Below, one piece after another: positions 11,003-41,640 of a stretch of DNA of 64,000 nucleotides. Numbering within the stretch: position 1 is the stretch's first letter; each line of letters opens with the position of its first letter. Both the position numbers and the translations under genes were made by a program. A model generated the notes under the pieces. It was not told the DNA's origin, did no database searches, and saw only the letters and a list, made by a program, of their open reading frames with translations. Origin of the DNA: Bacteroidota bacterium (GTDB lineage Bacteria > Bacteroidota > Bacteroidia > Bacteroidales > FEN-979); contig JBAXBP010000001.1 in the NCBI GenBank assembly GCA_037141915.1, positions 1,267 through 65,266 of the forward strand. The letters are read 5' to 3'.

Positions 11003-11003
11003 G

Positions 11004-12056
11004 CTAAGCTGTTTGTTTGGTGAAATACTTGCGCTGAAACCAGAATGATACATTGACCAGGCTGATCAGAACGGGAACTTCAACCAGGGGGCCGATCACG
11101 GCCGCAAAGGCAACTCCCGAACTGATGCCGAAAACCGAAACAGCTACTGCTATTGCCAGTTCAAAATTATTACTTGCCGCTGTGAAGGAAAGAGTAGCGG
11201 TTTTCTCATACCCGGCGCCAATACGCTTACCGATAAAAAATGACGCAATGAACATGACCACGAAATATATGATCAGTGGTATGGCGATACGCACTACGTC
11301 AAGCGGGATCTTTACAATATACTCACCTTTGAGTGAGAACATCACAATGATCGTGAAAAGCAGTGCGACCAGGGTGATAGGGCTGATTTTAGGGATGAAT
11401 TTACTTTCGTACCAGTCCCGGCTTTTCAGGTGGATAAGGCTGAACCTGGTGATAATCCCAGCAATAAAAGGGATCCCCAGGTATATGAACACGCTCTTTG
11501 CAATCTGGCCTATCGTGATGTCCACCGCAAAAGTTTTAAGGCCCAGCCAGGAAGGTAGTATCGTAAGAAAAATATAGGCGTAAACCGAAAAGAACAGGAC
11601 CTGAAAAATTGAATTAAAGGCTACCAGGCCTGCACAATATTCCCTGTCGCCTTTTGCAAGGTCATTCCATACGATGACCATCGCGATGCATCTTGCCAGT
11701 CCGATAAGGATCAGTCCGGCCATGTATTCAGGATATCCCCTGAGAAAGATGATCGCTAACAGGAACATGAATATGGGCCCTATGATCCAGTTCTGGACCA
11801 GGGAAACAGTAAGGATCTTTATGTTTTTAAACACATCACCCAGTTCTTCATACCTCACCTTTGCAAGAGGCGGGTACATCATAAGGATCAATCCAATGGC
11901 GATTGGGATATTGGTGGTCCCTGACTGAAAGCTGTTCCAGAAGCCGGCAACAGAAGGGAAATGATATCCTGAAAAAACACCTGCAAACATAGCCAGGAAA
12001 ATCCATAAGGTCAGGTAGCGGTCTAAAAAGCCAAGACGTTTTTTTGATGGAGACAT
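11004..12056 (-). CDS. acr3: ACR3-family arsenite efflux permease
   Basis: [27 protein letters not shown]... and a ~10-TM profile. The conserved ...GLARCIAMV... region carries the Cys typical of Acr3. Confidence 0.9.
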
Positions 12057-12083
12057 GGGATGGATGATTTACGATTTTATGGA

Positions 12084-12110
12084 CAATGTACGATGTACAA
12101 TGTACAAATG
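12084..12110. repeat. Tandem heptamers C(A/G)ATGTA x3.5 in the arsM-acr3 spacer; contains an 18-mer identical to one at 41618..41635
   Basis: CAATGTA CGATGTA CAATGTA CAAATG. ATGTACAATGTACAAATG (12093..12110) recurs exactly at 41618..41635. Confidence 0.9.
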
Positions 12111-12115
12111 CTCAA

Positions 12116-12922
12116 TTATTTTTCGGCGGTGACGGTGATGCTGAATATGCCGGTCTTATTATTTTTGAATTCACTGATTTCGGCTTCAGTCAGGTAATTG
12201 CGCAACAGTTCATCGGGCAGTTCAATTTCTTTTTCCTTGTTGATCTCAATGTTCCTGAACCCTGACTGACTAATTATTTCGAGGTATTCATCTTTCTGTA
12301 TGGCTCCTGCAACACAGCCTGAATACATTACGGCATCATCTTTCAATCCTTTGGGAAGCTTCCCTTGCAGCACCACATCGGAAATGCTGAAGTGACCTCC
12401 GGGTTTAAGAGCGCGGAATATACCATCATAGGCCTTTTTTTTGTCTGGCACCAGGTTCAAAACGCAATTGCTCACAACCACGTCGATAGTACCAGAAGGA
12501 ACAGGCATTTCCTCAATATCGCCTTTGATGAATTCCACATTGGTAAAGCCTAATTTTTTCACATTTTCACGGGCTTTTTCAAGCATGGTATCACTGAAAT
12601 CAATCCCAATCACTTTGCCTGATTCTCCCGACAGTGCACGGGCTACAAAGCAATCATTGCCTGCGCCTGAGCCAAGGTCAAGTACCGTATCGCCTTTTTT
12701 TATTCTGGCAAATTGTGTAGGTATCCCGCAACCAAGGCCAAGGTCTGCATCGGGATTGTAACCATCGAGCTTCTCATAATTCTCACTGAAGATGGTATAG
12801 TCGATCTCGCAGCATCCGCCGGCACCGCAGCATGATGTTTCATTTTCTTTCTTTGACTGCGTTGCGATCTGGCTGTATTTTTCTTTGACGATCTCTTTGA
12901 TGTCCTTCTTTTGAATATTCAT
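12116..12922 (-). CDS. arsM: Arsenite S-adenosylmethionine methyltransferase
   Basis: N-terminal Cys cluster ETSCCGAGGCCE, SAM-binding motif VLDLGSGAGNDCF and a conserved downstream Cys (YSGCVAGA). Length 268 aa. Confidence 0.9.
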   Translation of the reverse strand: MNIQKKDIKEIVKEKYSQIATQSKKENETSCCGAGGCCEIDYTIFSENYEKLDGYNPDADLGLGCGIPTQFARIKKGDTVLDLGSGAGNDCFVARALSGESGKVIGIDFSDTMLEKARENVKKLGFTNVEFIKGDIEEMPVPSGTIDVVVSNCVLNLVPDKKKAYDGIFRALKPGGHFSISDVVLQGKLPKGLKDDAVMYSGCVAGAIQKDEYLEIISQSGFRNIEINKEKEIELPDELLRNYLTEAEISEFKNNKTGIFSITVTAEK

Positions 12923-12953
12923 TGGTTTAAAATTTAATTCGTTAGTTTATCGA

Positions 12954-13367
12954 TTATTTTCTTTCTCTTGGCCTGATCATGCATGGACAAGGTCCGTTAA
13001 GAGGCTGGTATTTCCCCGCTTTCATGGGAAACCCGTCTTTTTCCCAATCGGCGATCCCTCCTGCCAGGCTGGCAATATTTTCGTAACCTTTTGCTCTCAG
13101 GGAAACTGCATATTTCCTGCTCCATAATCCTACCGCATCGGCCAGGATCAAGGGTTTATCCAGGGGTAGTGATTCCCATTTCTCTTCAAATTCAGTATGT
13201 GGAAGATAAATTATATTCTCGACCCCGAATGCACGGATATCAGTATCGAATTCTTCCCTGAGATCGACCATGGTTGCTCCAGCTCCTAATAGTTCCAGGA
13301 CTTCCTTTGGCAGGGGATAGGGGATTCCATCGATCTTCAGGCTGCAGTTTTCAAAAAAATCCGGCAT
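12954..13367 (-). CDS. Rhodanese-homology domain protein (active-site Cys position is Asp) with C-terminal CPC motif
   Basis: Rhodanese-like layout (...MVDLREEFD...IIYLPH...KPLILADAVGLWSRKYAVSLRAKGYENIASLAGGIADWEKDG). The loop reads ADAVGLWSR where the C-x-x-G-x-R Cys is expected. The tail is ...NGPCPCMIRPRERK. Confidence 0.7.
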   Translation of the reverse strand: MPDFFENCSLKIDGIPYPLPKEVLELLGAGATMVDLREEFDTDIRAFGVENIIYLPHTEFEEKWESLPLDKPLILADAVGLWSRKYAVSLRAKGYENIASLAGGIADWEKDGFPMKAGKYQPLNGPCPCMIRPRERK

Positions 13368-13379
13368 AGGACGGAAGGT

Positions 13380-14093
13380 TTATATGGAAGCATTGAAAAA
13401 GTAAATAGCAATGAAGTATATCCCGCTAAGGATAAAGATAACGGCAACAATCCTCCTGAACCACAGCTCAAAGATTTTGATCCTGTTATAAAAACCCCCG
13501 ACTGAAGAGATACTGAAGGCTATGATATAAGCGATAATAATGACTGGCAGTCCTGTTGCAATGGCGAACACCAGGGGCAGCAAAATTCCTGCCTTACTGG
13601 CCAGGGTCATAGGGATCAGGATGCCAAAATAAAGAACTCCGCTGTATGGGCAGAAAGCAAGGGCGAAAAGACAACCCAGCACAAATGAACCCCAGTAACT
13701 GTTTATCTTCAGTTTAGCAATAAGCCGGTCGGTCAGGTTGCTCAGGGAAAATTTTCCCAGGTTAATAAAATCGAGCATCAGGATACCAATGATAAGCAAG
13801 AATATCCCGATGAATTTCTCCCCGTTTGACTGGAGAAACCTTGCAAGATGGAACCTGCTTGCACCGAAAAATAAAATAAGTCCTAAAGCAGTATAACTGA
13901 AAGCCCTTCCTGCAGTATAGATCAAGCCATTGAGAAATACCCTGCGTTTATTTACCAGGTCTTTACTGATGTATGCTGTGGCGGTAATGTTTGTGGCAAG
14001 CGGGCATGGACTTATGGATGTCATAACACCCAGAATGAATGCCGACAAAAATGGCAGCTGAGCAGAGTCCAGGATATTTTGGAGGTACTCCAT
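13380..14093 (-). CDS. CcdA/DsbD-family six-TM thiol-disulfide transfer membrane protein (ArsG-family-like in ars operons)
   Basis: Polytopic membrane protein with two membrane-embedded Cys motifs, SISPCPLATN and LAFCPYSGVL, as in CcdA/DsbD. It lies inside the ars operon. Confidence 0.7.
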   Translation of the reverse strand: MEYLQNILDSAQLPFLSAFILGVMTSISPCPLATNITATAYISKDLVNKRRVFLNGLIYTAGRAFSYTALGLILFFGASRFHLARFLQSNGEKFIGIFLLIIGILMLDFINLGKFSLSNLTDRLIAKLKINSYWGSFVLGCLFALAFCPYSGVLYFGILIPMTLASKAGILLPLVFAIATGLPVIIIAYIIAFSISSVGGFYNRIKIFELWFRRIVAVIFILSGIYFIAIYFFNASI

Positions 14094-14097
14094 AAGT

Positions 14098-14505
14098 CTA
14101 TTTCAGCAGCAAATTAATTTTATCCTTCAGCACGCTGATAAATTTATCGGGGTTATACCGTGCATTGGCAAAAGCAAATTCAGTAAGGTCGTTCCTGCTC
14201 TCTTTGCCTCCCGACGTTTTTGTAAGGAACAAAGCCGAACCGGTCGCCTCATATTTCTCAGCTATGGCCTTGCTCTTACTGTCATCCACATCGATCACAG
14301 TGAATTTAATAGTGCCGTTCTTCAACTGTGAGGCGAAATAAACATCAAGGGTTTTCTTTGTGTTTTCTTCGATCGCCATGCAGGTGGGGCATCTCCGCGT
14401 TGCATGGAAATACAATACTTCCAGTTTTAAAGTTGGGTTCTGGGCCATCAGCATTGAGCAGAAGATGAAGCCCAGGATCAATGAAAGACTAAGTTTCTTA
14501 ATCAT
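14098..14505 (-). CDS. Exported thioredoxin-fold protein with CxxC (ArsF-family-like)
   Basis: Signal peptide MIKKLSLSLILGFIFCSMLMAQN, then YFHATRRCPTCMAIE (CxxC) in a ~110-aa thioredoxin-like body. Confidence 0.6.
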   Translation of the reverse strand: MIKKLSLSLILGFIFCSMLMAQNPTLKLEVLYFHATRRCPTCMAIEENTKKTLDVYFASQLKNGTIKFTVIDVDDSKSKAIAEKYEATGSALFLTKTSGGKESRNDLTEFAFANARYNPDKFISVLKDKINLLLK

Positions 14506-14516
14506 GATATTTTAAT

Positions 14517-14771
14517 TTATTGCCCTGTTTTGTTGATATGTTCCTGTATAAGCTGTTTGATCTCTGAAACTGCAGGCACCCTGCCATTAATCACCACCTG
14601 TTCATCGAACACAAGGGCCGGTGTTCGCATTACCTTGTAGCCGATGATTTTCGTGATGTCTTCAACCTTTATCACTTCGGCACAACTTCCCAATTCAGCT
14701 ACCGCTTTCCTGGTGTTACTCTCCAGTGTTCTGCAACTGGGGCACCCTGTTCCCAGTACTTTAATGATCAT
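14517..14771 (-). CDS. Small thioredoxin/glutaredoxin-like protein (redox-active disulfide protein 2 type)
   Basis: MIIKVLGTGCPSCRTLE..., 84 aa, with CxxC at the N-terminus of helix 1. The ATGA start/stop overlaps arsR. Confidence 0.8.
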   Translation of the reverse strand: MIIKVLGTGCPSCRTLESNTRKAVAELGSCAEVIKVEDITKIIGYKVMRTPALVFDEQVVINGRVPAVSEIKQLIQEHINKTGQ

Positions 14772-15103
14772 ACTTTTTGTGTTTCTGGTATTGACCGATA
14801 CGATTGCTTCCAGAAATCGGCAAACAGCTTCTGAGCCTGTTTCCAGTTCTCCGGTTCAATGCAGTACCTGATTTTGGGAGGCTCAATACATCCCTGGATC
14901 AAGCCCGATTCCTTCAATTCTTTCAGATGCTGTGATACCGTGGCCTGTGCGATCGGGAGTTCTTCAACGATCTCTCCGCAAAAACAGGTATCCATTGAAG
15001 CAAGCAGCTTCACGATCGCAATCCTGGCAGGATGGCTCAATGCCTTGGCAAACCTGGCCATCCGTATATCATCTTCATTATAATCCGTACTTGTATATGC
15101 CAT
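14768..15103 (-). CDS. arsR: ArsR/SmtB-family metalloregulator
   Basis: ALSHPARIAIVKLLASMDTCFCGEIVEELPIAQATVSQHLKELKESGLI: a winged HTH with a CxC metal site just before the recognition helix. Confidence 0.9.
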   Translation of the reverse strand: MAYTSTDYNEDDIRMARFAKALSHPARIAIVKLLASMDTCFCGEIVEELPIAQATVSQHLKELKESGLIQGCIEPPKIRYCIEPENWKQAQKLFADFWKQSYRSIPETQKV

Positions 15104-15298: not shown

Positions 15299-16192
15299 AT
15301 GGGGACAGTCTTTTCTAAAATGAACAGCTATTTTGAGTTTTCGAAAGAAAGAGATCTGAAAGAATATCCCAAACAGGTCTTCGTGCTTGCCGAAAAGTCC
15401 CTGGGTCCTCTTCTCGAATCAAAGCTCCCCGAAAACCTTAGTCATTTAATAGTGGCCACGACCACCCCGGATTCACTTGCCCCTTCCCTCGGACAGATGA
15501 TCGTTGATAAATTCAGCAGTTCTTTTTCAAATTGTCATTGCATCGATATTGTCCAGGGATGTGCAGGAAGCGTTACTTCCATGATAGTGGCCAGCCAGCT
15601 GGCCGAGTTGAATAAATCGTCGGTGATGGTGGTTAATGCCGATGCGGCAAAAAGGGCCACCTCCAGGTCAAGCAAGTTTAATAAAATTTTCGGGAACGGA
15701 TCGTTTGCCTGCCTGATCAGTTACCAGGATTCCAATACGGGGCTGATACACTCAAAGTCCAGGCAATACAAGGGCCTTTCGGAGGTTGTAAGTGTTCCCT
15801 TAGGTCATGATCTGCATGAAATATTATTAAGGGAGAACAAGAACCTGTACAGTGATCCGCGAAAATATCTCGGCCTGTCGATGAACAACCCCCTTGCATT
15901 GAAGCTGATCAGGAAAGCCGAAGCTTTTTACCTTGATTTTACCAAAGAGACCGGCCCGCCGGATATCATGATCCTTCACCAGGTGAACCCGCTTATACTG
16001 AAATACTTTTCATCGGTCTTTAAAAAGTATAAAATTGAATTTATCAACGTTGTTGAAACTACCGGGAACTGTGGTACCGCATCGGTAGGCATTGCGCTGG
16101 ATTCAATCAAGAACACCATAGGGGGTAAAACTGTTCTTTTATGCAGTTTCGGGACCGGCGGGGTCATTACAGCAGGCTATTGGCAAACCTAA
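15299..16192 (+). CDS. KASIII (FabH)-like condensing enzyme, N-terminally short (297 aa)
   Basis: Active-site Cys context IVQGCAGSVTSMIVAS, His in ILHQVNPLIL and Asn in TTGNCGTASVGIAL. The frame is closed by TAA at 15245..15247, so the usual ~35-aa N-terminal strand (M..I.G.G.Y.P) cannot be encoded. Confidence 0.7.
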   Translation: MGTVFSKMNSYFEFSKERDLKEYPKQVFVLAEKSLGPLLESKLPENLSHLIVATTTPDSLAPSLGQMIVDKFSSSFSNCHCIDIVQGCAGSVTSMIVASQLAELNKSSVMVVNADAAKRATSRSSKFNKIFGNGSFACLISYQDSNTGLIHSKSRQYKGLSEVVSVPLGHDLHEILLRENKNLYSDPRKYLGLSMNNPLALKLIRKAEAFYLDFTKETGPPDIMILHQVNPLILKYFSSVFKKYKIEFINVVETTGNCGTASVGIALDSIKNTIGGKTVLLCSFGTGGVITAGYWQT

Positions 16193-16207
16193 ACACCAGG
16201 ATTCCTT

Positions 16208-16834
16208 ATGCAGAAGCTGCTTTCGTTTACTATTACGGCTCTTCTACTTCAAATGCTTTCATTGACGGCAGAAGCACAGTCCTGGAACTTCATCAAAGAG
16301 AAGGAAGGGTTCAGGCTTTATACCCGGCAGGAGGCAAAGAGTTCGTTTAAATCATTCAGGGGGGAAGCTGAGATCAGGGCCGATCTGGATAAGGTGAGTT
16401 CCCTTATTGGCAATATCAAAAACCTCGACTGGTGGGGAGATGATGTGCATGACATCACTGTACTTGCTTTTGAAAAGGACAGGCACATCAGGTATTATTT
16501 TGTGTACGATGTTCCCTGGCCATTCACTGATCGGGACCTTGTTGCCGATGTCACAATTTCTGAAGATTCGGCTACCGGGATACGCACCGTTTATTCTCAT
16601 CCTTTGCCTGATGTTGTCCCTGAAAAGGCGGGATTGATCCGTGTTACAAATTACTGGCAGAAGTGGACCATACAGCCCTTAAAAAACGGGATGATCCATC
16701 TTACCCTTGAAGGTTTTATTGATCCTGCAGGGAGCGTGCCTGCCTGGTTGTATAACATGGTTATCATTGATACACCACTGAGGCTTTTACGGGAGGTTGA
16801 GAAGAGGGTTCAAACAGAGCAGGACCCCGGCTGA
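16208..16834 (+). CDS. Secreted START/SRPBCC-like lipid-binding domain protein
   Basis: Signal peptide MQKLLSFTITALLLQMLSLTAEAQ. The ~185-aa body has START-like features (...FRLYTRQEAKSSFKSFRGEAEIRADLDKV..., ...VPWPFTDRDLV..., ...GSVPAWLYN...). Confidence 0.6.
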   Translation: MQKLLSFTITALLLQMLSLTAEAQSWNFIKEKEGFRLYTRQEAKSSFKSFRGEAEIRADLDKVSSLIGNIKNLDWWGDDVHDITVLAFEKDRHIRYYFVYDVPWPFTDRDLVADVTISEDSATGIRTVYSHPLPDVVPEKAGLIRVTNYWQKWTIQPLKNGMIHLTLEGFIDPAGSVPAWLYNMVIIDTPLRLLREVEKRVQTEQDPG

Positions 16835-16881: not shown

Positions 16882-17700
16882 TTACTGCCTGAAAACCCTG
16901 GTAAGAAATGCCTTCATGTCGTTCCACGAAGCTTTGTCAGCTTCAGCATTATATTGAATCGGAAGATTGAACTCTTTTCCAAGCTTGGTAGCAGCGGGGT
17001 TTGTGAAGGCATGGGTTGCATTGGCGTAGGTCTTAAAAATATAATCGGCATGAATGGAATCCATCTGGTGTTTGAAGGTTTCAACATCATGCTGTGAAAC
17101 CGATTTGTCGCTGCCTCCATGGCATATAAGTATTTTGGCTTTTAATGACTTCGGATTTGGGGGCACACCTGCCAATCCGCCGTGGAAACTGACAACTCCT
17201 TTCAGATCGGCTCCAAGTTTGGTATAATTAAGTACCATAGAACCTCCGAAGCAATATCCTATGGCAGCAATATTCCCGGCATCAGCCAGGGGATATTCTT
17301 TGACCTTGTCAATTGCAGCATCAAGCCTGGCCTTTGCCAGAGTGGGATCCTTATAAAACTGTGAAGTCAGCTGCCTTGCACCGGCAGGATCTGAGGCAGT
17401 ATCTCCATTACCGAACATATCGACAGCCATGGCCAGGTAGCCTAATTCGGCCAGTTGTCTTGCCCGCATTTTTGAATAATCATTCATGCCCCACCATTCA
17501 TGGACGACGAGAACAACAGGTCGTTTCCCTTTTTTGGTTTCATCCCATGCGATAAATCCCTTCAGGGTAACGCCACTGGCTGAATAATTCACGCTTTCTT
17601 CTTTGAGCTTTGATGCCATGGTTTTTGAATATGAGAATAAGAGTATTGTAACGATGAGTGCAGAGGTAAGGATGCAATGAAAAATATTTTTTGCTTTCAT
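16882..17700 (-). CDS. Dienelactone hydrolase family protein (exported)
   Basis: Signal peptide. ...RPVVLVVHEWWGMNDY..., nucleophile context AAIGYCFGG and ...ICHGGSDK...HAF. This is the alpha/beta hydrolase DLH pattern. Confidence 0.85.
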   Translation of the reverse strand: MKAKNIFHCILTSALIVTILLFSYSKTMASKLKEESVNYSASGVTLKGFIAWDETKKGKRPVVLVVHEWWGMNDYSKMRARQLAELGYLAMAVDMFGNGDTASDPAGARQLTSQFYKDPTLAKARLDAAIDKVKEYPLADAGNIAAIGYCFGGSMVLNYTKLGADLKGVVSFHGGLAGVPPNPKSLKAKILICHGGSDKSVSQHDVETFKHQMDSIHADYIFKTYANATHAFTNPAATKLGKEFNLPIQYNAEADKASWNDMKAFLTRVFRQ

Positions 17701-18037
17701 TTTTTTAAGATTCAGAATAAACGGTCAATAAGAATTTAGAACAAAGGTAAAGGGAAGACAAGCCTGCTTAGTGTGATTACAGCTCAATTATATAAAAGGA
17801 TTATACCTCAATGTGAAGGTAGTGGTTTTTCAATCAATTCTCCGGGGAATCGAACAAATTTGTTGCAGGAAATCCCAAAAAAAATACAAGTGCATTTTTT
17901 TTCGCAATAAATACTAAAGCACGAAGCATTTAAGCTGATTCATTCTGAAATTCTGCAAAAGAGATGCGGTCCTTCGCGGATTCCCGTTTTTACTCCCCTT
18001 GTTTGCGAGCTAATTTTATGCAATCAAATTCCAGGGT

Positions 18038-19165
18038 ATGAAAAAGTTTCTCATTTTATCGTTGGCAGTGTTTTTATTGAAAAGCATGATGGCAATGAAT
18101 TTCGCAGGTTCAACGGAACCGCTGGCCGGCAGTTTAAATAACAATCCCGACACTGTCAAAAAGAATGCGGCTCACCCATACCATGGTTTTCCCGGGCAAC
18201 GTAAATCCGCAGTCAAAAAAAAGGTTCTGCCAATCGGCACTTTGAAGATCAGGACTGAAATCCCTGCCAGTTTTTCTTATGATAAAGATTCAACTCTCAC
18301 ACTTACTCCTTATCATCTCGTAGTAATTTACAAGGTTCCTGTCGGACCACATACACTTACATTCCGTGATTCACTTATGGAGCGCAGTAAAACGATAATG
18401 GTCGACACCGCTACCACCGGATATTATAAATTGCTTAAGGATTCGACCATCTCCGATTCGGTCAGCAGGGGAAAATTCGATCCGGGCCATAAGCAACATA
18501 TGGTCTTACGTTATGAGCCATTCAAGCATGCCATAAGTTTTGATTTTCTTCCGGGTGCCTTTTTTAACGGGAGGGGAATTGGCCCGAATATCAGGTTTGA
18601 GATCGGTTATAATGTCAGCAGGGTTCTGAAGCTGGGTATCGGTACAGGCTACGCTTACTACACTACCCATCTGAAATATACAGAATGGGAATGGTTCGTG
18701 CCGTCAGGTACCTATGAATCGGAAAACTTCGGGTTTCCTTTTATTCCCCTGTACCTGGATATTGCACTGAACTTTAAATCCAACAGGACCACGACCTTTT
18801 TAAGCTTTAATATTGGCGCCAGTTTTCCATTGGCCGGATCTATAAACTGCAAAGCTACCTACAACGGATCTTCATACGATGCATCAACGTATTATCTGAA
18901 GATCGACAAGATCCAGGCAGGACTTTATTTTGGAATCGGAGCCGGTATGAAATACTTTTTCACTCCCTTTTTCGAAGGAGGTGTGGCTGCCGGCTTTAAT
19001 ATGAGCATCAATGCTGTCAGCGGCAATTACTACAATGACCAGGCTTATACAGAGTATGCCTACCCTCATGCAGCACCTCACGCCACGACAGGTCTCGGGA
19101 TCAACCTCATGTTCGGATTTAACCTGGATACAAGGAAATCTCAGGGGAGGCCGCCGTCATGGTGA
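18038..19165 (+). CDS. Exported protein, PEGA-like N-domain plus Gly/aromatic-rich (beta-barrel-like) C-terminal half; function unknown
   Basis: Signal peptide MKKFLILSLAVFLLKSMMA. The segment LKIRTEIPASFSYDKDSTLTLTPYHLVVIYKVPVGPHTLTFRD resembles a PEGA domain. The C-terminal half alternates G/Y/F-rich strands. First gene of an apparent operon with two radical SAM genes (gaps of 43 and 18 nt). Confidence 0.5.
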   Translation: MKKFLILSLAVFLLKSMMAMNFAGSTEPLAGSLNNNPDTVKKNAAHPYHGFPGQRKSAVKKKVLPIGTLKIRTEIPASFSYDKDSTLTLTPYHLVVIYKVPVGPHTLTFRDSLMERSKTIMVDTATTGYYKLLKDSTISDSVSRGKFDPGHKQHMVLRYEPFKHAISFDFLPGAFFNGRGIGPNIRFEIGYNVSRVLKLGIGTGYAYYTTHLKYTEWEWFVPSGTYESENFGFPFIPLYLDIALNFKSNRTTTFLSFNIGASFPLAGSINCKATYNGSSYDASTYYLKIDKIQAGLYFGIGAGMKYFFTPFFEGGVAAGFNMSINAVSGNYYNDQAYTEYAYPHAAPHATTGLGINLMFGFNLDTRKSQGRPPSW

Positions 19166-19208
19166 GACCCGGTAATTCAGGAGGGATATCTTTTAAGTCA
19201 TAACGATC

Positions 19209-20540
19209 ATGGAAAAAGATATAGAACTGCTGTTAATTATCCCTTCGGCCCTTGACAGGCAGGGGAATCCTGTCAGGCATAAAAAATTGCTGCTTCCATC
19301 CATTACCATGCCCATGCTTGCCGCTGTCACTCCCGCCGGTGTTTCAATAACCATTATTTATGAGACCATTGAAGATATTCCCTTCGGGAAAAAATGGGAC
19401 CTGGTGGGTATTTCAGGAATGGGGTCCGGATCAGTGAGGGCCTGGCAGATCGCTGATGCATTCAGGGAAAACGGAGTCAAAACGATCATCGGCGGGATTG
19501 GGCCGAGTTTGTTTGATCCTGAAATGACGCTCAGGCATGCCGATTGCATCGTTATCGGAGAAGCCGAGGAAATATGGGGCGAGGTTATTGAGGATTTCAG
19601 ATCGGGGAGGCTTCAACGTATTTACAGGCAGGAACGCGCATCGGATCTAAGCACCTTGCCCACCCCTAGGTTTGACCTGATGAACATGAAGAAAATGGGA
19701 TTTATGCGCAGCGTGCAAGCGACAAGGGGATGCCCGTATACCTGCAGGTTCTGCTCAGTTTCGGCATTCTACCATGGCGCATACAGGAAAAGGCCTGTAG
19801 ATAAAGTAATACAGGATGTAAGGGCCGCAAAAAAAACGGGCAGCAGGTTCGTGGTGTTTCTCGACGATAATATATTCTTTGACCATGAGTATAACAGGGA
19901 ACTATGGACGGCATTGATACCGGAGAAGATCATCTGGATCAGTTCGGCAACGATACATATTGCAGATTACCCCGCAATGCTTGAACTGGCTTATAAAAGC
20001 GGCTGCCGCATGCTTTCGGTCGGGATTGAAACCCTTGACAAACAAAACCTGAAAACCGTGCATAAAAACTGGAACCATCCCGGTGAATATATCCGGGCCG
20101 TTGAGATCCTGAGGGCTAATCACATCATGGTATCGGCTTCGATCATGCTGGGAATGGACCATGATACAAAAGAAACTTTTAACCATGTGTTCGAATTCCT
20201 GATGGAAGGCTGTGTCCCTATCCCCCGCATCATGATCATCACCCCGATCCCGGGAACGCCATACTTTTCGGAACTTGAAAAGGAAAACAGGATCATCAAC
20301 CATGACTTCAGCAAGTATACCGGGGGAATAGTCGTATTCCAGCCTAAGAACATGAATGCGGAAGAACTGGAAGAGGGATACTGGAAAATGTATTCGGAAG
20401 TATTTACTCCGAAAAATATATTCCGGCGGATGTCAAAAAATATTACCGGGCAGAACCCCATGATCATCGCGGGGCTGTTTGTAACCAACTTCAACTATCG
20501 CAAGCAAATACAAAAACGGGTTGTTCCCGGGATCACCTGA
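19209..20540 (+). CDS. Class-B (B12-binding domain) radical SAM enzyme
   Basis: N-terminal Rossmann-like B12-binding domain (...DLVGISGMGSGSVRAWQIADAFRENGVKTIIGGIGPS...). The radical SAM cluster motif RGCPYTCRFCSV (CxxxCxxC) is encoded at 19731..19754. A C-terminal helical extension follows. Confidence 0.85.
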   Translation: MEKDIELLLIIPSALDRQGNPVRHKKLLLPSITMPMLAAVTPAGVSITIIYETIEDIPFGKKWDLVGISGMGSGSVRAWQIADAFRENGVKTIIGGIGPSLFDPEMTLRHADCIVIGEAEEIWGEVIEDFRSGRLQRIYRQERASDLSTLPTPRFDLMNMKKMGFMRSVQATRGCPYTCRFCSVSAFYHGAYRKRPVDKVIQDVRAAKKTGSRFVVFLDDNIFFDHEYNRELWTALIPEKIIWISSATIHIADYPAMLELAYKSGCRMLSVGIETLDKQNLKTVHKNWNHPGEYIRAVEILRANHIMVSASIMLGMDHDTKETFNHVFEFLMEGCVPIPRIMIITPIPGTPYFSELEKENRIINHDFSKYTGGIVVFQPKNMNAEELEEGYWKMYSEVFTPKNIFRRMSKNITGQNPMIIAGLFVTNFNYRKQIQKRVVPGIT

Positions 20541-20558
20541 TCCACATACAAAAACAAA

Positions 20559-21935
20559 ATGGAATCAAAAGCAAAAACCATAGCGGTGATTAACACCCTG
20601 GCCAATGTGTACTCGGAACACAGGGAATATACAGGCTTCTTTTCAAAGATCAGGACAGCCGAGTGGAGCAATATCTTTGTTTCACCTGCTGTGTTACTGA
20701 TTGCGACAATCCTGAAGCAGGCGGGGCATCAGGTTGCTATATACAATGATGTTAATAATGAGGTGGCCCCTGAGAACATACACGAGGAGATTATCCTGAT
20801 CTCCAGTATCACTCCATCGGCAAAAAGGGCATATGAAATCGCCGGGCTCTTCCCCGGCAGGAAGATTATTCTGGGTGGAGTGCATGTTTCGGTGCTTCCC
20901 GAAGAAGCCGCTCAATATGCCGATCACGTGGTGGTAGGTGAATGTGAACATATCCTGGCCGACCTGGTTGAAGGAAGGATAAAAGATAAAATCGTGTATT
21001 GCGAAAAAGTGCAGGACCTTGATGGCCTGCCTTTCCTCGACCATTCCCTGCTGAAGAATTTGCCCGATATAGTACCGGTGCAATCTTCGCGCGGCTGCAA
21101 TTTCAAATGCAATTATTGCACGGTTGCTTCCATGTACGGCCGGTACCGGTCGCGAAGCCCAGAAAACATTATCAGGGAGTTATTGCAATTTACAGAAACA
21201 TACGGGAAGATCAATAAAATCGATTTCAGGATAGACGCTGATTTTACCTTCATAAGAAAAAGGGCTATTGAAATTATTGGCAGGATGAAAGCCGAAGGGA
21301 TAAAGCCCAAAGCTATAGCAGCCAATTCGCGGCTGCAGGTATATAAAGATCACGAGTTGCTTTCCTGCCTGTCGGATCAGAATGTCACTCTTTGCATCGG
21401 CATTGAATCCCTGGACCAGGATACACTTGACAGCTACTGCAAGGAACAGAAAGAATCGGAAATCCTCGAGGCTATTAAAACCTTCCATGACTATAATATC
21501 AAGGTTATGGGATATTTGATTTTCGGCTCGGACCGGGATACCAAAGATACCCTGAAGCGCTATTCCGAATTCATTCATAAATCGGCTATTGATTTTTTCC
21601 AGGTTTCCCTGCTAACTCCTTACCCCGGGACCGGCCTGTACAGGAATCTACTATCACAAAAAAGGATATTCACTACAGACTGGGCCTATTATGACGGACT
21701 GCACATTACGTTTCACCCGGCGATGATGAGCGCTTACGAGATGCAAACCGAATTCCTGGATTTTTACCAGAAAGAGTTTTCATTAAAATTCCTTCTGAAC
21801 CCGAGATGGCTTTTCAATATGGAAATCCTGCAAAATAAATTTCTTATCTACACCCTGAAAAAAATGTTTGCCGAAGACATGATCAGGTATTCAAGTTATC
21901 TGAAAACATTGGACGACAAGGCAATTGAGTTTTAG
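20559..21935 (+). CDS. Class-B (B12-binding domain) radical SAM enzyme, paralogue of the preceding gene
   Basis: Same architecture. ...IILISSITPSAKRAYEIAGLFPGRKIILGGVHVS..., and the CxxxCxxC motif RGCNFKCNYCTV is encoded at 21096..21119. Confidence 0.85.
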   Translation: MESKAKTIAVINTLANVYSEHREYTGFFSKIRTAEWSNIFVSPAVLLIATILKQAGHQVAIYNDVNNEVAPENIHEEIILISSITPSAKRAYEIAGLFPGRKIILGGVHVSVLPEEAAQYADHVVVGECEHILADLVEGRIKDKIVYCEKVQDLDGLPFLDHSLLKNLPDIVPVQSSRGCNFKCNYCTVASMYGRYRSRSPENIIRELLQFTETYGKINKIDFRIDADFTFIRKRAIEIIGRMKAEGIKPKAIAANSRLQVYKDHELLSCLSDQNVTLCIGIESLDQDTLDSYCKEQKESEILEAIKTFHDYNIKVMGYLIFGSDRDTKDTLKRYSEFIHKSAIDFFQVSLLTPYPGTGLYRNLLSQKRIFTTDWAYYDGLHITFHPAMMSAYEMQTEFLDFYQKEFSLKFLLNPRWLFNMEILQNKFLIYTLKKMFAEDMIRYSSYLKTLDDKAIEF

Positions 21936-21954
21936 AAGCAATAATTGGATGCAA

Positions 21955-21983
21955 TAAAAAAGGCGGCACAAGGCCGCCCTTTC
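21955..21983. terminator. Bidirectional intrinsic terminator between convergent genes
   Basis: AAAAA-GGCGGC-ACAAG-GCCGCC-CTTT: a 6-bp GC stem flanked by an A-run and a T-run. It lies between the stops at 21935 (+) and 22004 (-). Confidence 0.6.
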
Positions 21984-22003
21984 CTGTAAATCCTTCAATG
22001 TCC

Positions 22004-23482
22004 TCACCTTTTCACTAATTTTCTTACCTGGACTTTGTCATCCGCAGTTAGTTTTATAAGGTAAACACCCTGTGCAAGTTTGCTTATATCAACCCTTGTT
22101 GTAGTCTGATCAAGAACCTGTTGCAGCAATTCCCGCCCGTTGAGATCGAGAATTGACATATGACCTGGTGAAGACTGCCCTGAAGCTTTAATGATTATTT
22201 GATCTGTTGCAGGATTAGGGGCCACAGAAAAAATTCCTGCGTTTGATTCTTTACTTTCAATGCCGTTGAGGAAGGATCTGAAACCGGCTTCGAAACGGTG
22301 AATGTCAGAGAAATAGTCTATGTAATTTTGTTGTGAGTAGATAAATATGAATCCCATATCGGGAATCCAGGAACCGCCTTGCAAAGATTCAAACTTCCCG
22401 CTGAGGGAATTCCCGTTTGCATCGTAAGTGTAGGTATAACGTGAATCATTGATCCAGCTGTCGTATAACCAGTCCTGCATAAGTAAAGTCAGCATATTCC
22501 CGTTTGAGTCGTATGTATAAGCATATCTCCATAAATACATCCAGCCGTTACTCTGCCAAAGTTCGTCCAGTTCGGTAAGCATTGCGCTGTTTGCATTATA
22601 AGTCCAGGTATATCTCCAATCATTCTCCCATGCATTTTGAACCCATTGTTCATCCAATTCGGAAGTTTGATTTCCTTTTGTGTCGTACGTATAAGAATAC
22701 CTTGAATAGTTCCTCCATTCTATACTTACAGTACTCATGTTGATCTCCCTCAATTCAGTTAATAAATTAAAGCCTGCATCATAGGTATAAGTAAACCGCC
22801 ACATCGAAATCCAGGCACTGCCGTTCCATTGTTCATCAAGCTCGGTCAGCATATTTCCATTGTTATTATACGTATAGGTGTACCTCGAGGAATTTACCCA
22901 GTTGGTGTTCCAATCTTCATAAAGTTCGGTAAGCATGTTCCCGCCTGTGTCGTAAGTGAAGCTATACCTGGCATTATTCACCCATGCGGTGCCCGAATTT
23001 GATTCTAACAGCTCAGTCAGAAGATTTCCCCCTGAATCCCAGGTCAATGTGATTCTCGAAAAGCCCCGCCACATGTCAACAGACCAAATCTCTTGTAATC
23101 CCGACAAAGGCAGCCCGCTTGCATTATAAGTGAATGATATCCTGTACTCATTAGCCCAGGAATTGGATTGCCATTTTTTAGCAAGTTGGGTCAGGATATT
23201 GCCATTTGCATCAAAAGTTTTTGTGAGATTTTCAAACAACCCCAATGTATCATAAGTGACAATGGAATCCCAATCCCATCTGAGGGATTTGGATTTTGAT
23301 AGCATTATTTCATTTAACCGTGTTTGCAGATGACTGCTCCCGTTAATCCGGATGTGCACGATTTTGGCAGGTTTTTCACTACCCTTTCCAATCCTGATCC
23401 CTGGTCTTTCATGCTTTGTGTGACTACTTGCAAAGGAAATGCTGCAGAGGAAAATAAAACATAAAAAAAGTAAATTTTTCAT
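22004..23482 (-). CDS. Secreted repeat protein (YD/RHS-like ~28-aa repeats) with T9SS C-terminal sorting domain
   Basis: Signal peptide. About 11 tandem units of the form RY(S/T)(F/Y)TYD..GN.LTEL.E.W....W... C-terminus IFSVAPNPATDQIIIKASG...GVYLIKLTADDKVQVRKLVKR. Confidence 0.75.
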   Translation of the reverse strand: MKNLLFLCFIFLCSISFASSHTKHERPGIRIGKGSEKPAKIVHIRINGSSHLQTRLNEIMLSKSKSLRWDWDSIVTYDTLGLFENLTKTFDANGNILTQLAKKWQSNSWANEYRISFTYNASGLPLSGLQEIWSVDMWRGFSRITLTWDSGGNLLTELLESNSGTAWVNNARYSFTYDTGGNMLTELYEDWNTNWVNSSRYTYTYNNNGNMLTELDEQWNGSAWISMWRFTYTYDAGFNLLTELREINMSTVSIEWRNYSRYSYTYDTKGNQTSELDEQWVQNAWENDWRYTWTYNANSAMLTELDELWQSNGWMYLWRYAYTYDSNGNMLTLLMQDWLYDSWINDSRYTYTYDANGNSLSGKFESLQGGSWIPDMGFIFIYSQQNYIDYFSDIHRFEAGFRSFLNGIESKESNAGIFSVAPNPATDQIIIKASGQSSPGHMSILDLNGRELLQQVLDQTTTRVDISKLAQGVYLIKLTADDKVQVRKLVKR

Positions 23483-24945: not shown

Positions 24946-25419
24946 TCAGTTTAGTTTGAAAAACGCTGCATTCAGTATTGTTGCAAAACTAACCCAAAGA
25001 AAATAAGGGATATTAATATAGGCTGCGGCGGGCTTGATCCTGTAAAAGAGTGAGATCATAACGGGTATGCATAGCCAAAGAATTACGATATCCATCAGAG
25101 CAAGCCCGATGTGCTTAAAATAGAAAAAGAAGAAACTCCAGGCAAAGTTAAGGAGGAGCTGAATGAAATAAACGGCAAGGGCCCATGATTTCGCCTTACT
25201 TGCCGGCTGGCACCAGATCAGGTAAAATGAGACTCCCATCAGGATGTATAAAACAGTCCAAACAGGACCAAAAATCCAGTTTGGCGGGCTTATGGCCGGG
25301 GAGGTCAGTGAAGCATACCATACAGGTATTGCATTTGAAGTGAAGAAGCCTGAAACGGCTCCGATCAAAAGCGGTAAAGAAAGGGAAATAAGAAGCCTGA
25401 TAATATTCATGGTCTTCAT
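24946..25419 (-). CDS. tspO: TspO/MBR tryptophan-rich sensory protein
   Basis: 157 aa with 5 TM segments and Trp-rich motifs (PPNWIFGPVWTVLYILMG, LLLNFAWSFFFF, IPYFLWVSFATILN). Confidence 0.85.
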   Translation of the reverse strand: MKTMNIIRLLISLSLPLLIGAVSGFFTSNAIPVWYASLTSPAISPPNWIFGPVWTVLYILMGVSFYLIWCQPASKAKSWALAVYFIQLLLNFAWSFFFFYFKHIGLALMDIVILWLCIPVMISLFYRIKPAAAYINIPYFLWVSFATILNAAFFKLN

Positions 25420-25439: not shown

Positions 25440-26522
25440 TTACATTTTATAAACCAATGCATTGATGTTCATTCCGGCCCCGACGGAGGCCAGAACAATA
25501 GTATCCCCTTTCTTAATTTTATGGGTGTTCATCTTCTTCTTAAGGATGAGGTCGAGAAGGGTAGGAACTGTTGCAACCGAAGAATTACCCAGCCATGAAA
25601 TCGTCATAGGCATGACGTTTTCAGGTATATCATCAATACCATAAAGTGTATAAAGCCTTTGCAATATCGCATCATCCATTTTCCCGTTGGCCTGATGGAT
25701 CAGTACTTTTTTAATGTCGCGGAGACTTACTTTGCTCTTTTCCAGGCAGTCTTTGATCGCCTGTGGAACTGTTTCAAGGGCATACTGGTATAGTCTCCTG
25801 CCGTTCATTTTTAAAAACATTTCTTCATGCTCAGCACCTGATGGCTTATATGATTTGCCCATGAAAAGCATTTTGGAATACAGGAAGGTATCTGAACGTG
25901 TTTTGTGCGCCAGGATACCGATTGGAGTGCTGCTCTTCCTTGCTTCCAGAACAGCCGCGCCTGCCCCGTCGGAATAAAGCATACTGTCCCTGTCGTGAGG
26001 GTCGGAAACCCTGGATAAAATTTCTGCCCCGATAACCAGGATTTTCTTGGCATCTCCTGATTTTATATAATAATCGGCTTGTATCATTGCCTGCAGCCAG
26101 CCGGGACATCCAAAAGGCAGATCGTAAGCTACCGTACCGGGATTTTTTATGCCAAGCTGAAACTTGACCCGGGAAGCAAGGCTGGGTACAATATCCAGTT
26201 GCTTATTGCCTTTACGTACGTCACCGAAATTGTGAGCAACAATGATGTAATCGAGTTCTTCCTTGTCGATTTCGGCAGATTTAATGGCCTCAACAGCCGC
26301 AAACCCTGCCAGGTCGGAGGTTACGAGGCTGCCTGATGCATAACGTCTTTCGGCAATTGTTGAAATTTCCTCAAATTTATCAATGATCTCGCGATTCGTT
26401 TTATCGAGTTTTTTCCCGGATGTATCATAGAATTCAGCGGCAAGAAAATCTTCATTTTTAACAAGCTTTGAAGGGATATAAGACCCGGTTCCTGTGATAA
26501 TACTGTAAATGTTTTTCTCCAT
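25440..26522 (-). CDS. KASIII (FabH)-family beta-ketoacyl synthase
   Basis: From the ATG at 26520..26522: MEKNIYSIITGTGSYIPS... Active-site Cys in LPFGCPGWLQAM, His in VLIHQANGKM and Asn in WLGNSSVATVP. The track start at 26606 is a TTG adding 28 non-homologous residues. Confidence 0.85.
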   Translation of the reverse strand: MEKNIYSIITGTGSYIPSKLVKNEDFLAAEFYDTSGKKLDKTNREIIDKFEEISTIAERRYASGSLVTSDLAGFAAVEAIKSAEIDKEELDYIIVAHNFGDVRKGNKQLDIVPSLASRVKFQLGIKNPGTVAYDLPFGCPGWLQAMIQADYYIKSGDAKKILVIGAEILSRVSDPHDRDSMLYSDGAGAAVLEARKSSTPIGILAHKTRSDTFLYSKMLFMGKSYKPSGAEHEEMFLKMNGRRLYQYALETVPQAIKDCLEKSKVSLRDIKKVLIHQANGKMDDAILQRLYTLYGIDDIPENVMPMTISWLGNSSVATVPTLLDLILKKKMNTHKIKKGDTIVLASVGAGMNINALVYKM

Positions 26523-26814
26523 ATAAAAATGATGTACGCCTTTGATTACTTGCTTGAAAATTATGCTTTTCCCGGTTGATTTTGGATTTTTTTCAACCGG
26601 TTCCAACTGTCCATCACGTATTTAAGCTTTTTAGAAAAGGATTTTTTAATGCCAAATATTTTTACAAATATACTTTTTTCAATATATTTTACAAGTAAAA
26701 ATAAGCGGGTGCAGCTAAGATTTCTACAAAGAATAGCCGGAAAGAGGGTAATGAATTAGTGAGGCAGGATATTCCCGTATGGATTTCAGGATCGGAAAAA
26801 TCAGGCATACCCTG

Positions 26815-29800
26815 TTAATGGCGTGAAATTGCCGAGTTCAGGTAGGAGACAAGCACCTCGTTCTTATTCCCGCTGGTGCCGTCGTAGGTCAGGGTAACGA
26901 CAGGAATTCCGGTAATTCTCCTGATCTCCTGGGCCATGGCCTCGGTTACCATGGCAGGGCAGCAGAAGGCAGGATTGGTTTGCACAAAAAGAGAGATACC
27001 TGGATGGTTTTCGAGGATATAAAAAATCTTCAGGATGTTCTCGTAGGATTCGCCTGAATGATAAGGGCTTATATTGAATTTAGACAGATTTTTTTCAAGG
27101 CGTTCAGGACTGATAACCGGTTTGTTCCCCAGGTATTTCTTGAATTGATTATAGTACTTGTCCTCAAACATTTTAATGCTCGAAATCATCACCCTGTAAA
27201 GACCTGTATTAAAATAATCGCCACGTGCCATGGCCCGGCGTATCTGATTCTCGATCGTTAATTTTACCAGGTCTGTATAGGGTGTTGTGACTACTTCGCC
27301 CCCGTTTTCTTCGATATCACGGATCAGGTCCTGGTTCATGATGTCGTTATCCCTTACGTACAGGTCGCCGAAAATGGCAACCAGGGGCTTGTTCCCCGGT
27401 TTCCGTTCAATTTTATCAAACAGTGAGACCGCTTCAGTTACGGCAGCATCAATCTGACGCTTACCGAGAAAAGCCGTTTCAAGGATACTTATGCTTTTTT
27501 CGATAGCAGCGTCCGTTTCACCGCGGTTGACCTCATAAGGCCTTACTTTGCATCCCATCTTCCGGATCAGCCCGCCCAGCAGGTAAGCGAAATAGGCATA
27601 GTAACCGGTGCTGTATGCAATTTCAAGATGTGTAAGCTTCCCGAAATAAACGGATGCCTTATCAAAACCATGCCCGTAATCCTCAAGCAGGTTTTTAATA
27701 TAAAAAGGATAAAGTCTGAGGTTGCAGGTGATGTAACATTTGGTCATCCAAAGCATGGTTTGTTCAGGCTTCAGCCCATGCTGCTCAACATAATCAATGA
27801 ATTCCTGGGCAACGATATTCACAGGAATACATTGCCCTGTATTATGGGCCATGCTTTTGCGGATGATCATTTCGCTGGATTTCATCAGGCGGGCATCGAT
27901 GCCTCCCCTCCGGAGGTTGGCAACCAATAAGGGCGCCACCAGGTTATCCCAGTTGGGAAACAGCAGGGTCTTGCCGTTGATCCTGGTTTCGAGGTGGGGC
28001 AATAAGGAGGGAGACTTTGGCTCAGGGGCTTTGCGGTCCAGGGCCGAGTGGTTCCTGAACGACCTGATCGCAGCTTCAATCCTGGTTTCATAGCCCACAT
28101 TCGAATCATGTTCATCGATCTGGAGGATGAGATAGGGCTTGTCATATTCGTTCATCATTTTTTTAAAATACTCGATGATGAAAGAATCGGGAGCGCATTT
28201 GAAAGCGGTGACCAGTACAGGATAAAGATTCTTTACTGTGGCTGTTGTCCTGGCTGTTTCAAGGATCCTGGAAGCATAATACCAGGGGATTTTCCTGAGC
28301 AGAAGTTCGGTTTCTTCGGGCTGCAATTCGTCCGGATCAATCATATCCTGGAAAAAGCTTTTGATCCCCATCCTGGCAAAAATATCGGGAATGCCTTTGT
28401 TCATTGACTTCGAGAGTACCACGTATGGCCGTCCCAGTAAAACCACCGAAACTCCGTCGGCAGGGTTAAATTCAGTTTTAAAAACCGTGATCAGTTTCTT
28501 TTTACGCTCATGGGCAAACAGCAGGGCCTCTTCGTAAGCCCATTTCACTTTTTCAAACGTGATGGCCGGTCCAAGGCAGGGGCTGAGGCTTGCGGTAAGC
28601 TGTTTGACCACCTGCCGGTTCCCCTTATGGAAATTAAGCATGGGGGATATCATTTTCCCGGTAACGGCCTTATCCTTCATTGTAAATAGGAGAGAGCCCG
28701 AATACTGCGTGTAATAGCAGTAATTGCTGTCGGAATTTTCGGGTTTGTCCCTTGTTTCCAGTGAAACCGGAAGGAAAATGAAATCCGCCTTACCTGCCAG
28801 CCAGTTTACATGACCGTGAATGGAATCGATTGGCGCGCAAAACTCAGCCCCGGCTATCCGCTTTCCTTCTTTTACAGGGTCGGTGTAATTTTCGCTGGTC
28901 ACGATACGCACAGATAAATTTCCGAAAAAACGCTTCCAGAGTATAAGTTCATCGTACAGGTGCAATGCAGCAGGTAATCCAACGACGACCTCATGACTGA
29001 AGGACTTGGGCTGGACCAGGCGAAGGATACCTGCTCTCAGTTCAAGGAGGTTAAAAACCCGTGATTCTAAGTTAAGGTGTTTTTTTGTTTCATAATCCCT
29101 TCCGCAAAGAAACCCGTATGCCACCTGTTCCCCATGCACATTGGCGAGGCTGATGTGGCAATTGTTATAACAGATCGTGCACCTCTCTGAGCGGATGTCA
29201 AGCACTTCTTTGAAAAATCCGAGGCCCCTGAACCCGGATTTGGACGACATATCATCTTTAAAGCCATAGCGCCTGGTTTCAGCCGGTTTTTCTTCCCCGA
29301 GTAGCAGCGCCACGCCAAGAGCGCCGGTAAGATGACAGTAAGGCGATACAAAAATTTGCTTTCCCAGCCGTTGTTCAAAGGCCGCGACCAGTGACTTGTT
29401 TTTTGCCGTTGCCCCCTGGAAACAGACCTGCTTGCCTATGGAACTCTCCACAGCCACTTTTTTCAGGTAATTTTCGGTCACTGAATGAAGTACCGCAGCC
29501 AGGATCTCATCCACCGAATACCCTTTATTCAGAAGATGATTCATGTCGCGTTCCATGAAAACGGTACAACGGTCGCTGGTAAGAGGGGCCGGCACTCCCC
29601 CTGTCCGTTTTGAATAGGCATCCAGATCACAGCCCAGTTTCCCTGCCTGCTCCTCGAGAAAACTCCCGGTCCCGGCTGCACAAACGGCGTTCATCTGCGA
29701 AAAAGTCACCATTCCCTTATGCATGAGGGTAAACTTGGAATCCTGTCCGCCGATCTCAATAATGGTATCAGTTTCGGGGTTCAGTTCATACGCAGCCCTG

Positions 29801-41589: not shown

Positions 41590-41601
41590 GAAAGAACTAA
41601 G

Positions 41602-41636: not shown

Positions 41637-41640
41637 AGAT

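Follow-up and report, generated by a model that had tools for sequence, protein, structure and literature searches.

A self-contained pair of class-B-type radical SAM genes in a Bacteroidota bacterium, independent of its outer-membrane-like neighbour and tentatively assigned to a lipid-type substrate

Which reaction do two paralogous radical S-adenosylmethionine (SAM) enzymes carry out, and on which substrate, when no gene for making that substrate stands beside theirs? The question is raised by a locus in a 64,000-nucleotide stretch from a Bacteroidota bacterium (contig JBAXBP010000001.1, positions 1,267 to 65,266 of the forward strand; the whole stretch is called the window here, and coordinates refer to it). 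Three co-oriented open reading frames (ORFs) follow each other on the + strand: the gene of an exported outer-membrane-protein (OMP)-like protein (18038..19165; 375 aa with a signal peptide, an N-terminal part rich in beta structure and assigned to no domain, and a small beta-barrel in the C-terminal third), rSAM1 (19209..20540; 443 aa with a Rossmann domain, a radical SAM core built on C175/C179/C182 and a C-terminal DUF4070) and rSAM2' (20559..21935; 458 aa with a B12-binding domain and a radical SAM core built on C180/C184/C187). The spacers are 43 nt between the OMP-like gene and rSAM1, and 18 nt between rSAM1 and rSAM2'. The reactions that B12-type radical SAM enzymes carry out on unactivated carbons are chemically hard, and among the enzymes that modify lipids few have been assigned.

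A first-pass annotation of this DNA described the three ORFs and both spacers as they are present, read them as one operon, and took the coupling to an envelope protein as a hint at modification of a membrane lipid or envelope component. The analysis presented here separates the parts of that reading. The two radical SAM genes are a self-contained, dispensable cassette, independent of the OMP-like gene, which is an unrelated chance neighbour. For the substrate, a lipid-type molecule remains the likeliest candidate, because a conserved gene cluster surrounds rSAM1 orthologues in other phyla; the basis first given for it, i.e. the envelope protein and the neighbouring genes of the window, fails.

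The radical SAM genes form a cassette of their own

The cassette is delimited by comparison with a relative in which it is missing. DNA homology between the window and locus L097 runs from 17621 to 19181 and is found again from 21915 on, and the 2.75 kb missing in L097 are exactly the two rSAM genes, with a cassette extent of 19175-21923. The boundaries are marked on the + strand by an imperfect 11-bp direct repeat, with GGTAATTCAGG at 19171-19181 and GGCAATTGAGT at 21920-21930, the latter within the last codons of rSAM2'. At the empty site of L097 a single hybrid repeat copy, GGTACATTGAGG, is followed by TTTAG and reads IEV-stop, where the end of rSAM2' in the window reads IEF-stop. Since the IEV-stop is retained at the empty site, a deletion in the relative is slightly favoured over an insertion in the window.

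Upstream, blastn homology covers window 17621 (with L097) or 17858 (with L095) to 19181, and the non-coding region 5' of the OMP-like gene (17701..18037, + strand) is kept with that gene in the cassette-free relatives. Orthologues of the OMP-like protein were placed on contigs in L095/L096 (72% identity) and L097 (79%), where they belong to a block arranged as in the window, comprising the OMP-like gene, a type IX secretion system (T9SS) cargo gene or its remnant, a cytochrome c-like gene, a KASIII gene and, further on, the gene of a ~1420-aa BcrAD/DUF2229 protein; neither radical SAM gene is part of it. The protein is a near-orphan, with 4 homologue clusters among 5.8 billion proteins, and a homologue is absent from all ~100 other loci carrying relatives of either enzyme. 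The pair, in turn, is found in ~10 other loci and never with this OMP-like protein. The three genes are hence no conserved unit, the outcome that the first-pass annotation had itself named as speaking against its operon, and with orthologues of the one standing without the other on both sides, the envelope coupling carries no functional information. At most, the OMP-like gene is a possible source of read-through transcription into the pair.

Concerning the OMP-like protein itself, the earlier description as an exported PEGA/beta-barrel-like protein stands for the signal peptide and, at the borderline, for the barrel, but not for PEGA. OMP_b-brl_2 of Pfam matches the C-terminal part with 27.2 bits against a cutoff of 27, and the AlphaFold model shows a barrel at residues ~196-361 with a predicted local distance difference test score (pLDDT) of 65-88 and weak fold matches to OmpW/OmpA/Ail. 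A PEGA label for the N-terminal part found no support, with no Pfam match at E<=0.1 and an N-terminal pLDDT <50.

Neither do the neighbours that had been called lipid-flavoured support a linkage to the pair, since KASIII and the PlsA-like 1423-aa protein persist in the block where the pair is absent. The latter (26815-31086, - strand) contains two BcrAD_BadFG acyl-CoA dehydratase activase domains and a DUF2229, and is 86% identical in the cassette-free L095; its architecture is that of the anaerobic plasmalogen synthase PlsA/PlsR in fused form, or else of Ger, a related ester-to-ether reductase. Near it lie KASIII (25440-26606, - strand) and TspO (24946-25419, - strand). The T9SS cargo protein (22004-23482, - strand), with RHS/YD-like repeats, a Por_Secre_tail and a DUF3836, is reduced to a 113-aa remnant in L095 and has diverged to 53% identity in L097; the intergenic neighbourhood is therefore in flux.

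Two distant paralogues that occur as a strict pair

Both window enzymes look intact and conserved in their family alignments. The CxxxCxxC motif is present in rSAM1 (RGCPYTCRFCSV) and in rSAM2' (RGCNFKCNYCTV), its Cys triad is invariant in each family, and the Radical_SAM matches in Pfam are strong (75.5 and 59.5 bits, respectively, against a cutoff of 29.5), so that the radical SAM cores were correctly recognised from the start. The two are indeed paralogues, and distant ones, with 27.8% identity over 349 aa. The class-B architecture proposed for both holds as a Rossmann domain followed by a radical SAM core, but the Pfam threshold for B12-binding is passed by rSAM2' only (38.1 bits against 32.1). 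The pair may use cobalamin.

rSAM1 has 2202 detected homologues and carries the C-terminal DUF4070 with 31.3 bits (Pfam). Its AlphaFold model (pLDDT 89.9) shows the class-B two-domain fold, with AprD4 as the best Foldseek match (E 1e-20, template modelling (TM) score 0.75), followed by MgmA/QCMT, CysS, TsrM, MiaB, OxsB and TokK; as far as the predicted model goes, these matches describe the class-B fold class and carry no indication of the reaction type. The rSAM2' family is rare, consisting of ~24 clusters of >50% identity, all metagenomic, with the next matches at <=42%. Its alignment contains an invariant GECE motif with C129, and in the window pair there is no conserved Cys beyond those of the SAM cluster plus one.

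In the subclade of rSAM1 to which the window belongs, rSAM1 and rSAM2' are strictly paired: an rSAM1-subclade gene lies directly upstream of rSAM2' in every locus where the identity of rSAM2' is >=62%. The adjacent pair is present in the window, L006, L089 (the same as L063/L090), L091/L093, L092, the P0009/P0130 contig and L099-L102. Its flanks differ at each locus and include AraC regulators, LGT, a GMC oxidoreductase with an aldehyde dehydrogenase, aldo-keto reductases and TonB-receptor-like proteins. A further radical SAM gene (~375-391 aa, with Radical_SAM and Fer4_12 domains and no B12 domain) directly precedes the pair in two subclade loci, the P0009 contig and L100 (L100:3-1130), which suggests that a three-enzyme version of the cassette exists.

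The absence of a precursor-peptide-like small ORF, noted in the first-pass annotation, extends to the other loci. When five subclade loci (the window, L006, L089, L091 and L092) were compared in their flanks, stop to stop and in six frames, no conserved small ORF was seen, the ORFs of >=20 aa 5' of the OMP-like gene look random with none conserved, and the small ORFs 5' of the pair in L091/L093 are a membrane peptide with two transmembrane segments and noise.

A conserved gene cluster surrounds rSAM1 orthologues in other phyla

The rSAM1 orthogroup was scanned with one genome per species, yielding 309 species, from which 80 loci were retrieved. A full-length match of >=45% identity together with grouping within the family defined an orthologue. 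The window rSAM1 qualifies, with 49-54% identity over residues 1-443 to the orthologues of the 80 loci, and falls, within a monophyletic subclade, into group 8 of a neighbour-joining and UPGMA (unweighted pair-group) analysis. The subclade has a mean distance of 0.22 within and of 0.48 to the rest, the rest being at 0.37 among themselves. The orthogroup spans at least 8 phyla, including Bacteroidota, Acidobacteriota, Gemmatimonadota, Ignavibacteria, Planctomycetota, Thermodesulfobacteriota, Myxococcota and KSB1, and is also present in a Roseomonas.

ORFs were called and clustered in the 80 loci and domains were assigned with Pfam and NCBIfam. A ~380-aa GNAT-like protein accompanies rSAM1 in 62 of them and a ~500-aa B12-type radical SAM enzyme related to HpnR, the hopanoid C-3 methylase (235 bits, cutoff 650), in 57, while a FemAB-like protein is found in 50, an alpha-oxoamine synthase of the BioF/Kbl/serine-palmitoyltransferase-like kind in 27, and as its alternative a ~900-aa fusion of a class-III aminotransferase (Aminotran_3) with an NAD-binding domain, whose best NCBIfam match is PigE, in at least 21. 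The fusion has the architecture of TamH, an acyl-thioester reductase/transaminase. Short-chain dehydrogenases/reductases (SDRs), cytochromes P450, MMPL transporters, PEMT/ICMT-type membrane methyltransferases, a DAGK_cat lipid kinase, a sulfotransferase, GH3 and Acyl_transf_3 are variable. In Ignavibacteria the HpnR-like radical SAM enzyme is fused to the alpha-oxoamine synthase in proteins of 917-967 aa (L019:11341-14097; also in L038, L062 and L065), a Rosetta-stone arrangement that links radical SAM chemistry with amine formation.

From its domains the cluster looks like a pathway for a long-chain amine or sphingoid-like base, in which the base would be made, N-acylated and decorated, and in which the two radical SAM enzymes would act on unactivated carbons. 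Examples are L018:7895-16669, L081:9953-21002, L076:8707-18052 and L024:10004-20790, and the cluster also occurs in cultured strains, i.e. Flavobacterium enshiense DK69, Terrimonas sp. NS-102, Phaeodactylibacter xiamenensis and Aestuariivivens spp. A full-text literature search did not find a paper describing it.

The window shares with this unnamed cluster a full-length rSAM1 at the identities given above, but differs from it in having another partner and no accessory genes within 64 kb. The HpnR-like partner was not found in the window by tblastn, and rSAM2' is ~25% identical to it. In the window lineage, the HpnR-like partner is replaced by rSAM2' and the substrate-building genes are unlinked. 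Pfam annotation of the rest of the window revealed no sphingolipid, corrinoid or other obviously related genes, in line with the first-pass remark that no other biosynthetic genes accompany the enzymes. Elsewhere in the subclade a trace of the ancestral cluster context is retained: in L089, an SDR gene and a gene homologous to the cluster GNAT (28% identity, E 1e-49) lie 4-5 kb upstream of the pair, and L100 has a PEMT-like gene just downstream of it.

Comparison with characterised enzymes

The function had been called unpredictable from sequence, and this is borne out by NCBIfam, where no family comes near its cutoff. Scores are given here as rSAM1/rSAM2' bits against the family cutoff. The best match for both is BchE (TIGR02026; 101.3/105 against 481), and there are no bacteriochlorophyll genes in the window. 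HpnJ (TIGR03471; 76/93.5 against 577.6), HpnR (TIGR04367; 70.7/67.7 against 650), the ladderane/aryl-polyene-type lipid B12-type radical SAM family (TIGR04072; 80.9/78 against 360), PhpK (82/65 against 600), QCMT (TIGR04014; 60/67 against 360) and ApyD (73/57 against 750) all remain below cutoff, as does the AprD4 model (50 bits against 500). The methylase family of RiPPs (peptides that are synthesised ribosomally and modified after translation) reaches 29.4/26.8 against 281.85 (TIGR03975), and no precursor peptide is adjacent. In a PDB sequence search only AprD4, QCMT, CysS, MiaB/RimO and MoaA were retrieved (E<=10 for rSAM2', E<=0.001 for rSAM1). Placement in a characterised family was thus rejected, all NCBIfam matches being below cutoff and the PDB sequence and fold searches giving generic class-B or MiaB-like results. 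The Tes/Mss type gave no match in the PDB sequence search, an indirect test that depends on the solved Tes-type enzyme GDGT-MAS (GDGT, glycerol dialkyl glycerol tetraether) being in the PDB, as we presume it to be.

Among individual enzymes, AprD4 (PDB 6FD2), a radical SAM 1,2-diol dehydratase, is the best structural match of rSAM1 and of similar length, and is also its second-best PDB sequence match and marginally the best one of rSAM2'; it is, however, only 17% identical to rSAM1 and the window offers no aminoglycoside context. The best PDB sequence match of rSAM1 is MgmA/QCMT (PDB 9CCB, 63 bits), the glutamine C-methyltransferase of methyl-coenzyme M reductase (MCR), which shares the class-B fold class with OxsB, TsrM and TokK, but whose substrate is a methanogen protein that has no counterpart here; 9CCB was identified as MgmA/QCMT via PMC12931638. 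The hopanoid C-2 and C-3 methylases HpnP and HpnR resemble the window pair in having a B12 Rossmann domain followed by a CxxxCxxC barrel and a probable hydrophobic substrate, and an HpnR relative is the usual partner of rSAM1 in other phyla; the window differs in having no HpnR-like partner and no hopanoid genes.

A 2026 review lists Tes, Mss, Gms, GrsA/B, Gmm, Cds, HpnH/J/P/R, Jaw5 and a ladderane candidate as lipid-modifying radical SAM enzymes (PMC13459092). None of those that were tested matches this family, GrsA/B and the archaeal lipid-tail enzyme Gmm being compared by description only (PMC13459092, PMC11214058). GrsA and GrsB act successively on the tails of archaeal GDGT lipids, which they cyclise (PMC13459092). 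By the description given there, they are, like the window pair, two paralogous B12-type radical SAM enzymes with no auxiliary clusters, which could work on separate positions of a single lipid; unlike the window pair, which belongs to a Bacteroidota bacterium, they are archaeal and ring-forming and have an isoprenoid substrate. An enzyme matching the pair was not found in two reviews and one primary paper on B12-type and lipid-modifying radical SAM enzymes.

Proposed function and alternatives

We tentatively propose, giving it somewhat less than an even chance, that the pair works in succession on a lipid-like molecule which the cell makes elsewhere, functionalising carbons that are not activated, probably by methylation. 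Each enzyme would reductively cleave SAM at its [4Fe-4S] cluster, take a hydrogen off such a carbon in this hydrophobic substrate, whose synthesis would be encoded at another place in the genome, and functionalise that carbon, most likely through cobalamin-mediated methyl transfer, with cyclisation or dehydration as possible outcomes. rSAM1 and rSAM2' would act at different positions or in succession.

Several results weigh against this proposal. The B12-binding match of rSAM1 covers the profile only in part and reaches 29.3 bits against the cutoff of 32.1, and the best structural match of rSAM1, AprD4, is a dehydratase that has a B12-like domain and binds no cobalamin, so that the Rossmann domain of rSAM1 need not bind cobalamin either. 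Matches to characterised families are all generic, at 60-105 bits against cutoffs of 250-750, and the function of the rSAM1 cluster is itself deduced from domain content. By tblastn with all cluster representatives, the 64-kb window contains no homologue of the cluster GNAT, oxoamine synthase, FemAB-like protein or SDR. Since the partner in the window is not HpnR-like, the rSAM1 offshoot may have changed its substrate. Finally, distant rSAM2'-like proteins (50-56% identity) stand alone, with no rSAM1, and in non-lipid contexts.

Most of the remaining probability goes to non-methylating chemistry, with small shares for peptide or cofactor substrates. Dehydration as in AprD4, ring formation or contraction as in BchE, HpnJ and Grs-type enzymes, or C-C coupling could take place on a lipid or another small molecule, with a Rossmann domain that binds no cobalamin or uses it as an electron sink; we consider this unlikely, though an alternative to be taken seriously. 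AprD4 as the top Foldseek match of the rSAM1 model (E 1e-20, TM 0.75), BchE as the best NCBIfam match (101 and 105 bits), the high HpnJ score of rSAM2' (93.5) and the below-threshold B12-binding of rSAM1 all point that way, and B12-type radical SAM enzymes such as GrsA/B do cyclise lipid tails (PMC13459092). However, the BchE and HpnJ scores are far below their cutoffs (481-578 bits), the methyltransferases QCMT, CysS, TsrM and TokK match almost as well, and characterised class-B enzymes are mostly methylases (PMC12931638). A tetrapyrrole, quinone or corrinoid, i.e. a cofactor or pigment in place of a lipid, is an improbable substrate in our estimate. Besides the BchE match, it is suggested by a stand-alone rSAM2'-like gene (52% identity) that adjoins a URO-D family gene in L106 and by another near a QueG-like Fer4_16/HEAT protein in L094, but both contexts belong to distant relatives with no rSAM1, and no tetrapyrrole or quinone gene is linked in the ~10 subclade or the 80 orthogroup loci.

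C-methylation of a peptide or protein, of the RiPP or the QCMT/Mmp10 type, has likewise a low probability. MgmA/QCMT (9CCB, 63 bits) is the best PDB sequence match of rSAM1, the ApyD and RiPP methylase models match weakly, and the third, Fer4_12-type radical SAM gene directly upstream of the pair in two subclade loci would fit such a pathway. Against this stand the lack of a small ORF shared between the five independent subclade loci whose flanks were compared, the lack of a leader-peptide recognition, protease or transporter gene, RiPP scores of 27-29 bits against a cutoff of 282, and the nature of the conserved neighbours of the orthogroup, which are lipid and amine enzymes and not peptide genes; the OMP-like protein, as the sole candidate for a substrate of this kind, is missing at every other locus. 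That the OMP-like protein and the two enzymes together build or handle a modified envelope component is very improbable. In its favour, all three genes run in one orientation, the first two being 43 nt apart with no terminator in between, and in a few other Bacteroidota loci outer-membrane-type genes lie near the pair, an Omp85-like one in L089 and TonB-receptor-like ones in L091-93; yet OMP orthologues occur without the pair at the same chromosomal site, the pair elsewhere is always without the OMP-like gene, whose family has only 4 homologue clusters, and the outer-membrane genes near the pair in other loci are not homologous to one another. Outer-membrane genes are very abundant in Bacteroidota.

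Returning to lipid tailoring by the pair, a more specific version would make it a portable lipid-tail module that decorates the alkyl chains of a bulk membrane lipid with methyl branches or rings, a speculative proposal to which we assign a small probability; conceivable targets are sphingoid, plasmalogen/ether or membrane-spanning lipids in Bacteroidota of anoxic freshwater. If it were true, the rSAM1 orthogroup would mark an undescribed cross-phylum pathway for long-chain amine lipids, and the enzymes would be candidates for the biosynthesis of those bacterial lipid biomarkers, branched or cyclised, that are orphans with no known biosynthetic genes. The rSAM1-rSAM2' pair adds to a known enzyme class and does not constitute a system of a new type. 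It is valuable chiefly as a pointer to the larger conserved cluster, with two radical SAM enzymes combined with amine-forming and N-acylating enzymes, which is experimentally tractable, and close relatives with and without the cassette lend themselves to a natural comparison by lipidomics.

Flanking signals and other features of the window

A shared terminator had been placed behind rSAM2'. A terminator-like scan does find a GC-rich hairpin, GGCGGCACAAGGCCGCC, at 21962-21978 between the convergent rSAM2' and T9SS-cargo genes, but it is followed 3' by CTTTCC and not by a T-run; the same hairpin sequence lies directly 3' of the OMP-like gene in L097, at the cassette-free site. No terminator was found between the OMP-like gene and rSAM1. 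In their 43-nt spacer a partial TAnnTTTG-like element, TATCTTTT, is visible by eye at 19187-19194, with no -33 TTTG, and a sigma-70 promoter scan, whose model is unsuited to Bacteroidota, gave nothing above shuffled expectation. The reported lack of a cobalamin riboswitch upstream agrees with Rfam, which shows no match at E<=1 in 17500-22200 and no gathering-score match in the whole 64-kb window, hence no riboswitch and no other curated RNA family.

Further away, a KASIII-like protein of 297 aa with weak ACP_syn_III matches, far below the FabH cutoff, is encoded in 15299-16834 (+ strand), where 15 nt 3' of its gene there follows that of a START-like lipid-binding protein with a signal peptide. 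A run of genes at 10304-15103 (- strand) resembles an arsenic or thiol-stress island and comprises an ArsR-type HTH_5 regulator, a thioredoxin-like protein, DsbD_TM, a rhodanese, a SAM methyltransferase, an SBF-family transporter, a DUF5714 protein and an ArsC-like low-molecular-weight phosphatase. At 40327-44453 (+ strand), a cytochrome b, a Rieske protein and a 765-aa multihaem cytochrome c with MtrC-like and TPR domains are encoded in a row, an unusual complex of the bc type whose partner is a large multihaem protein.

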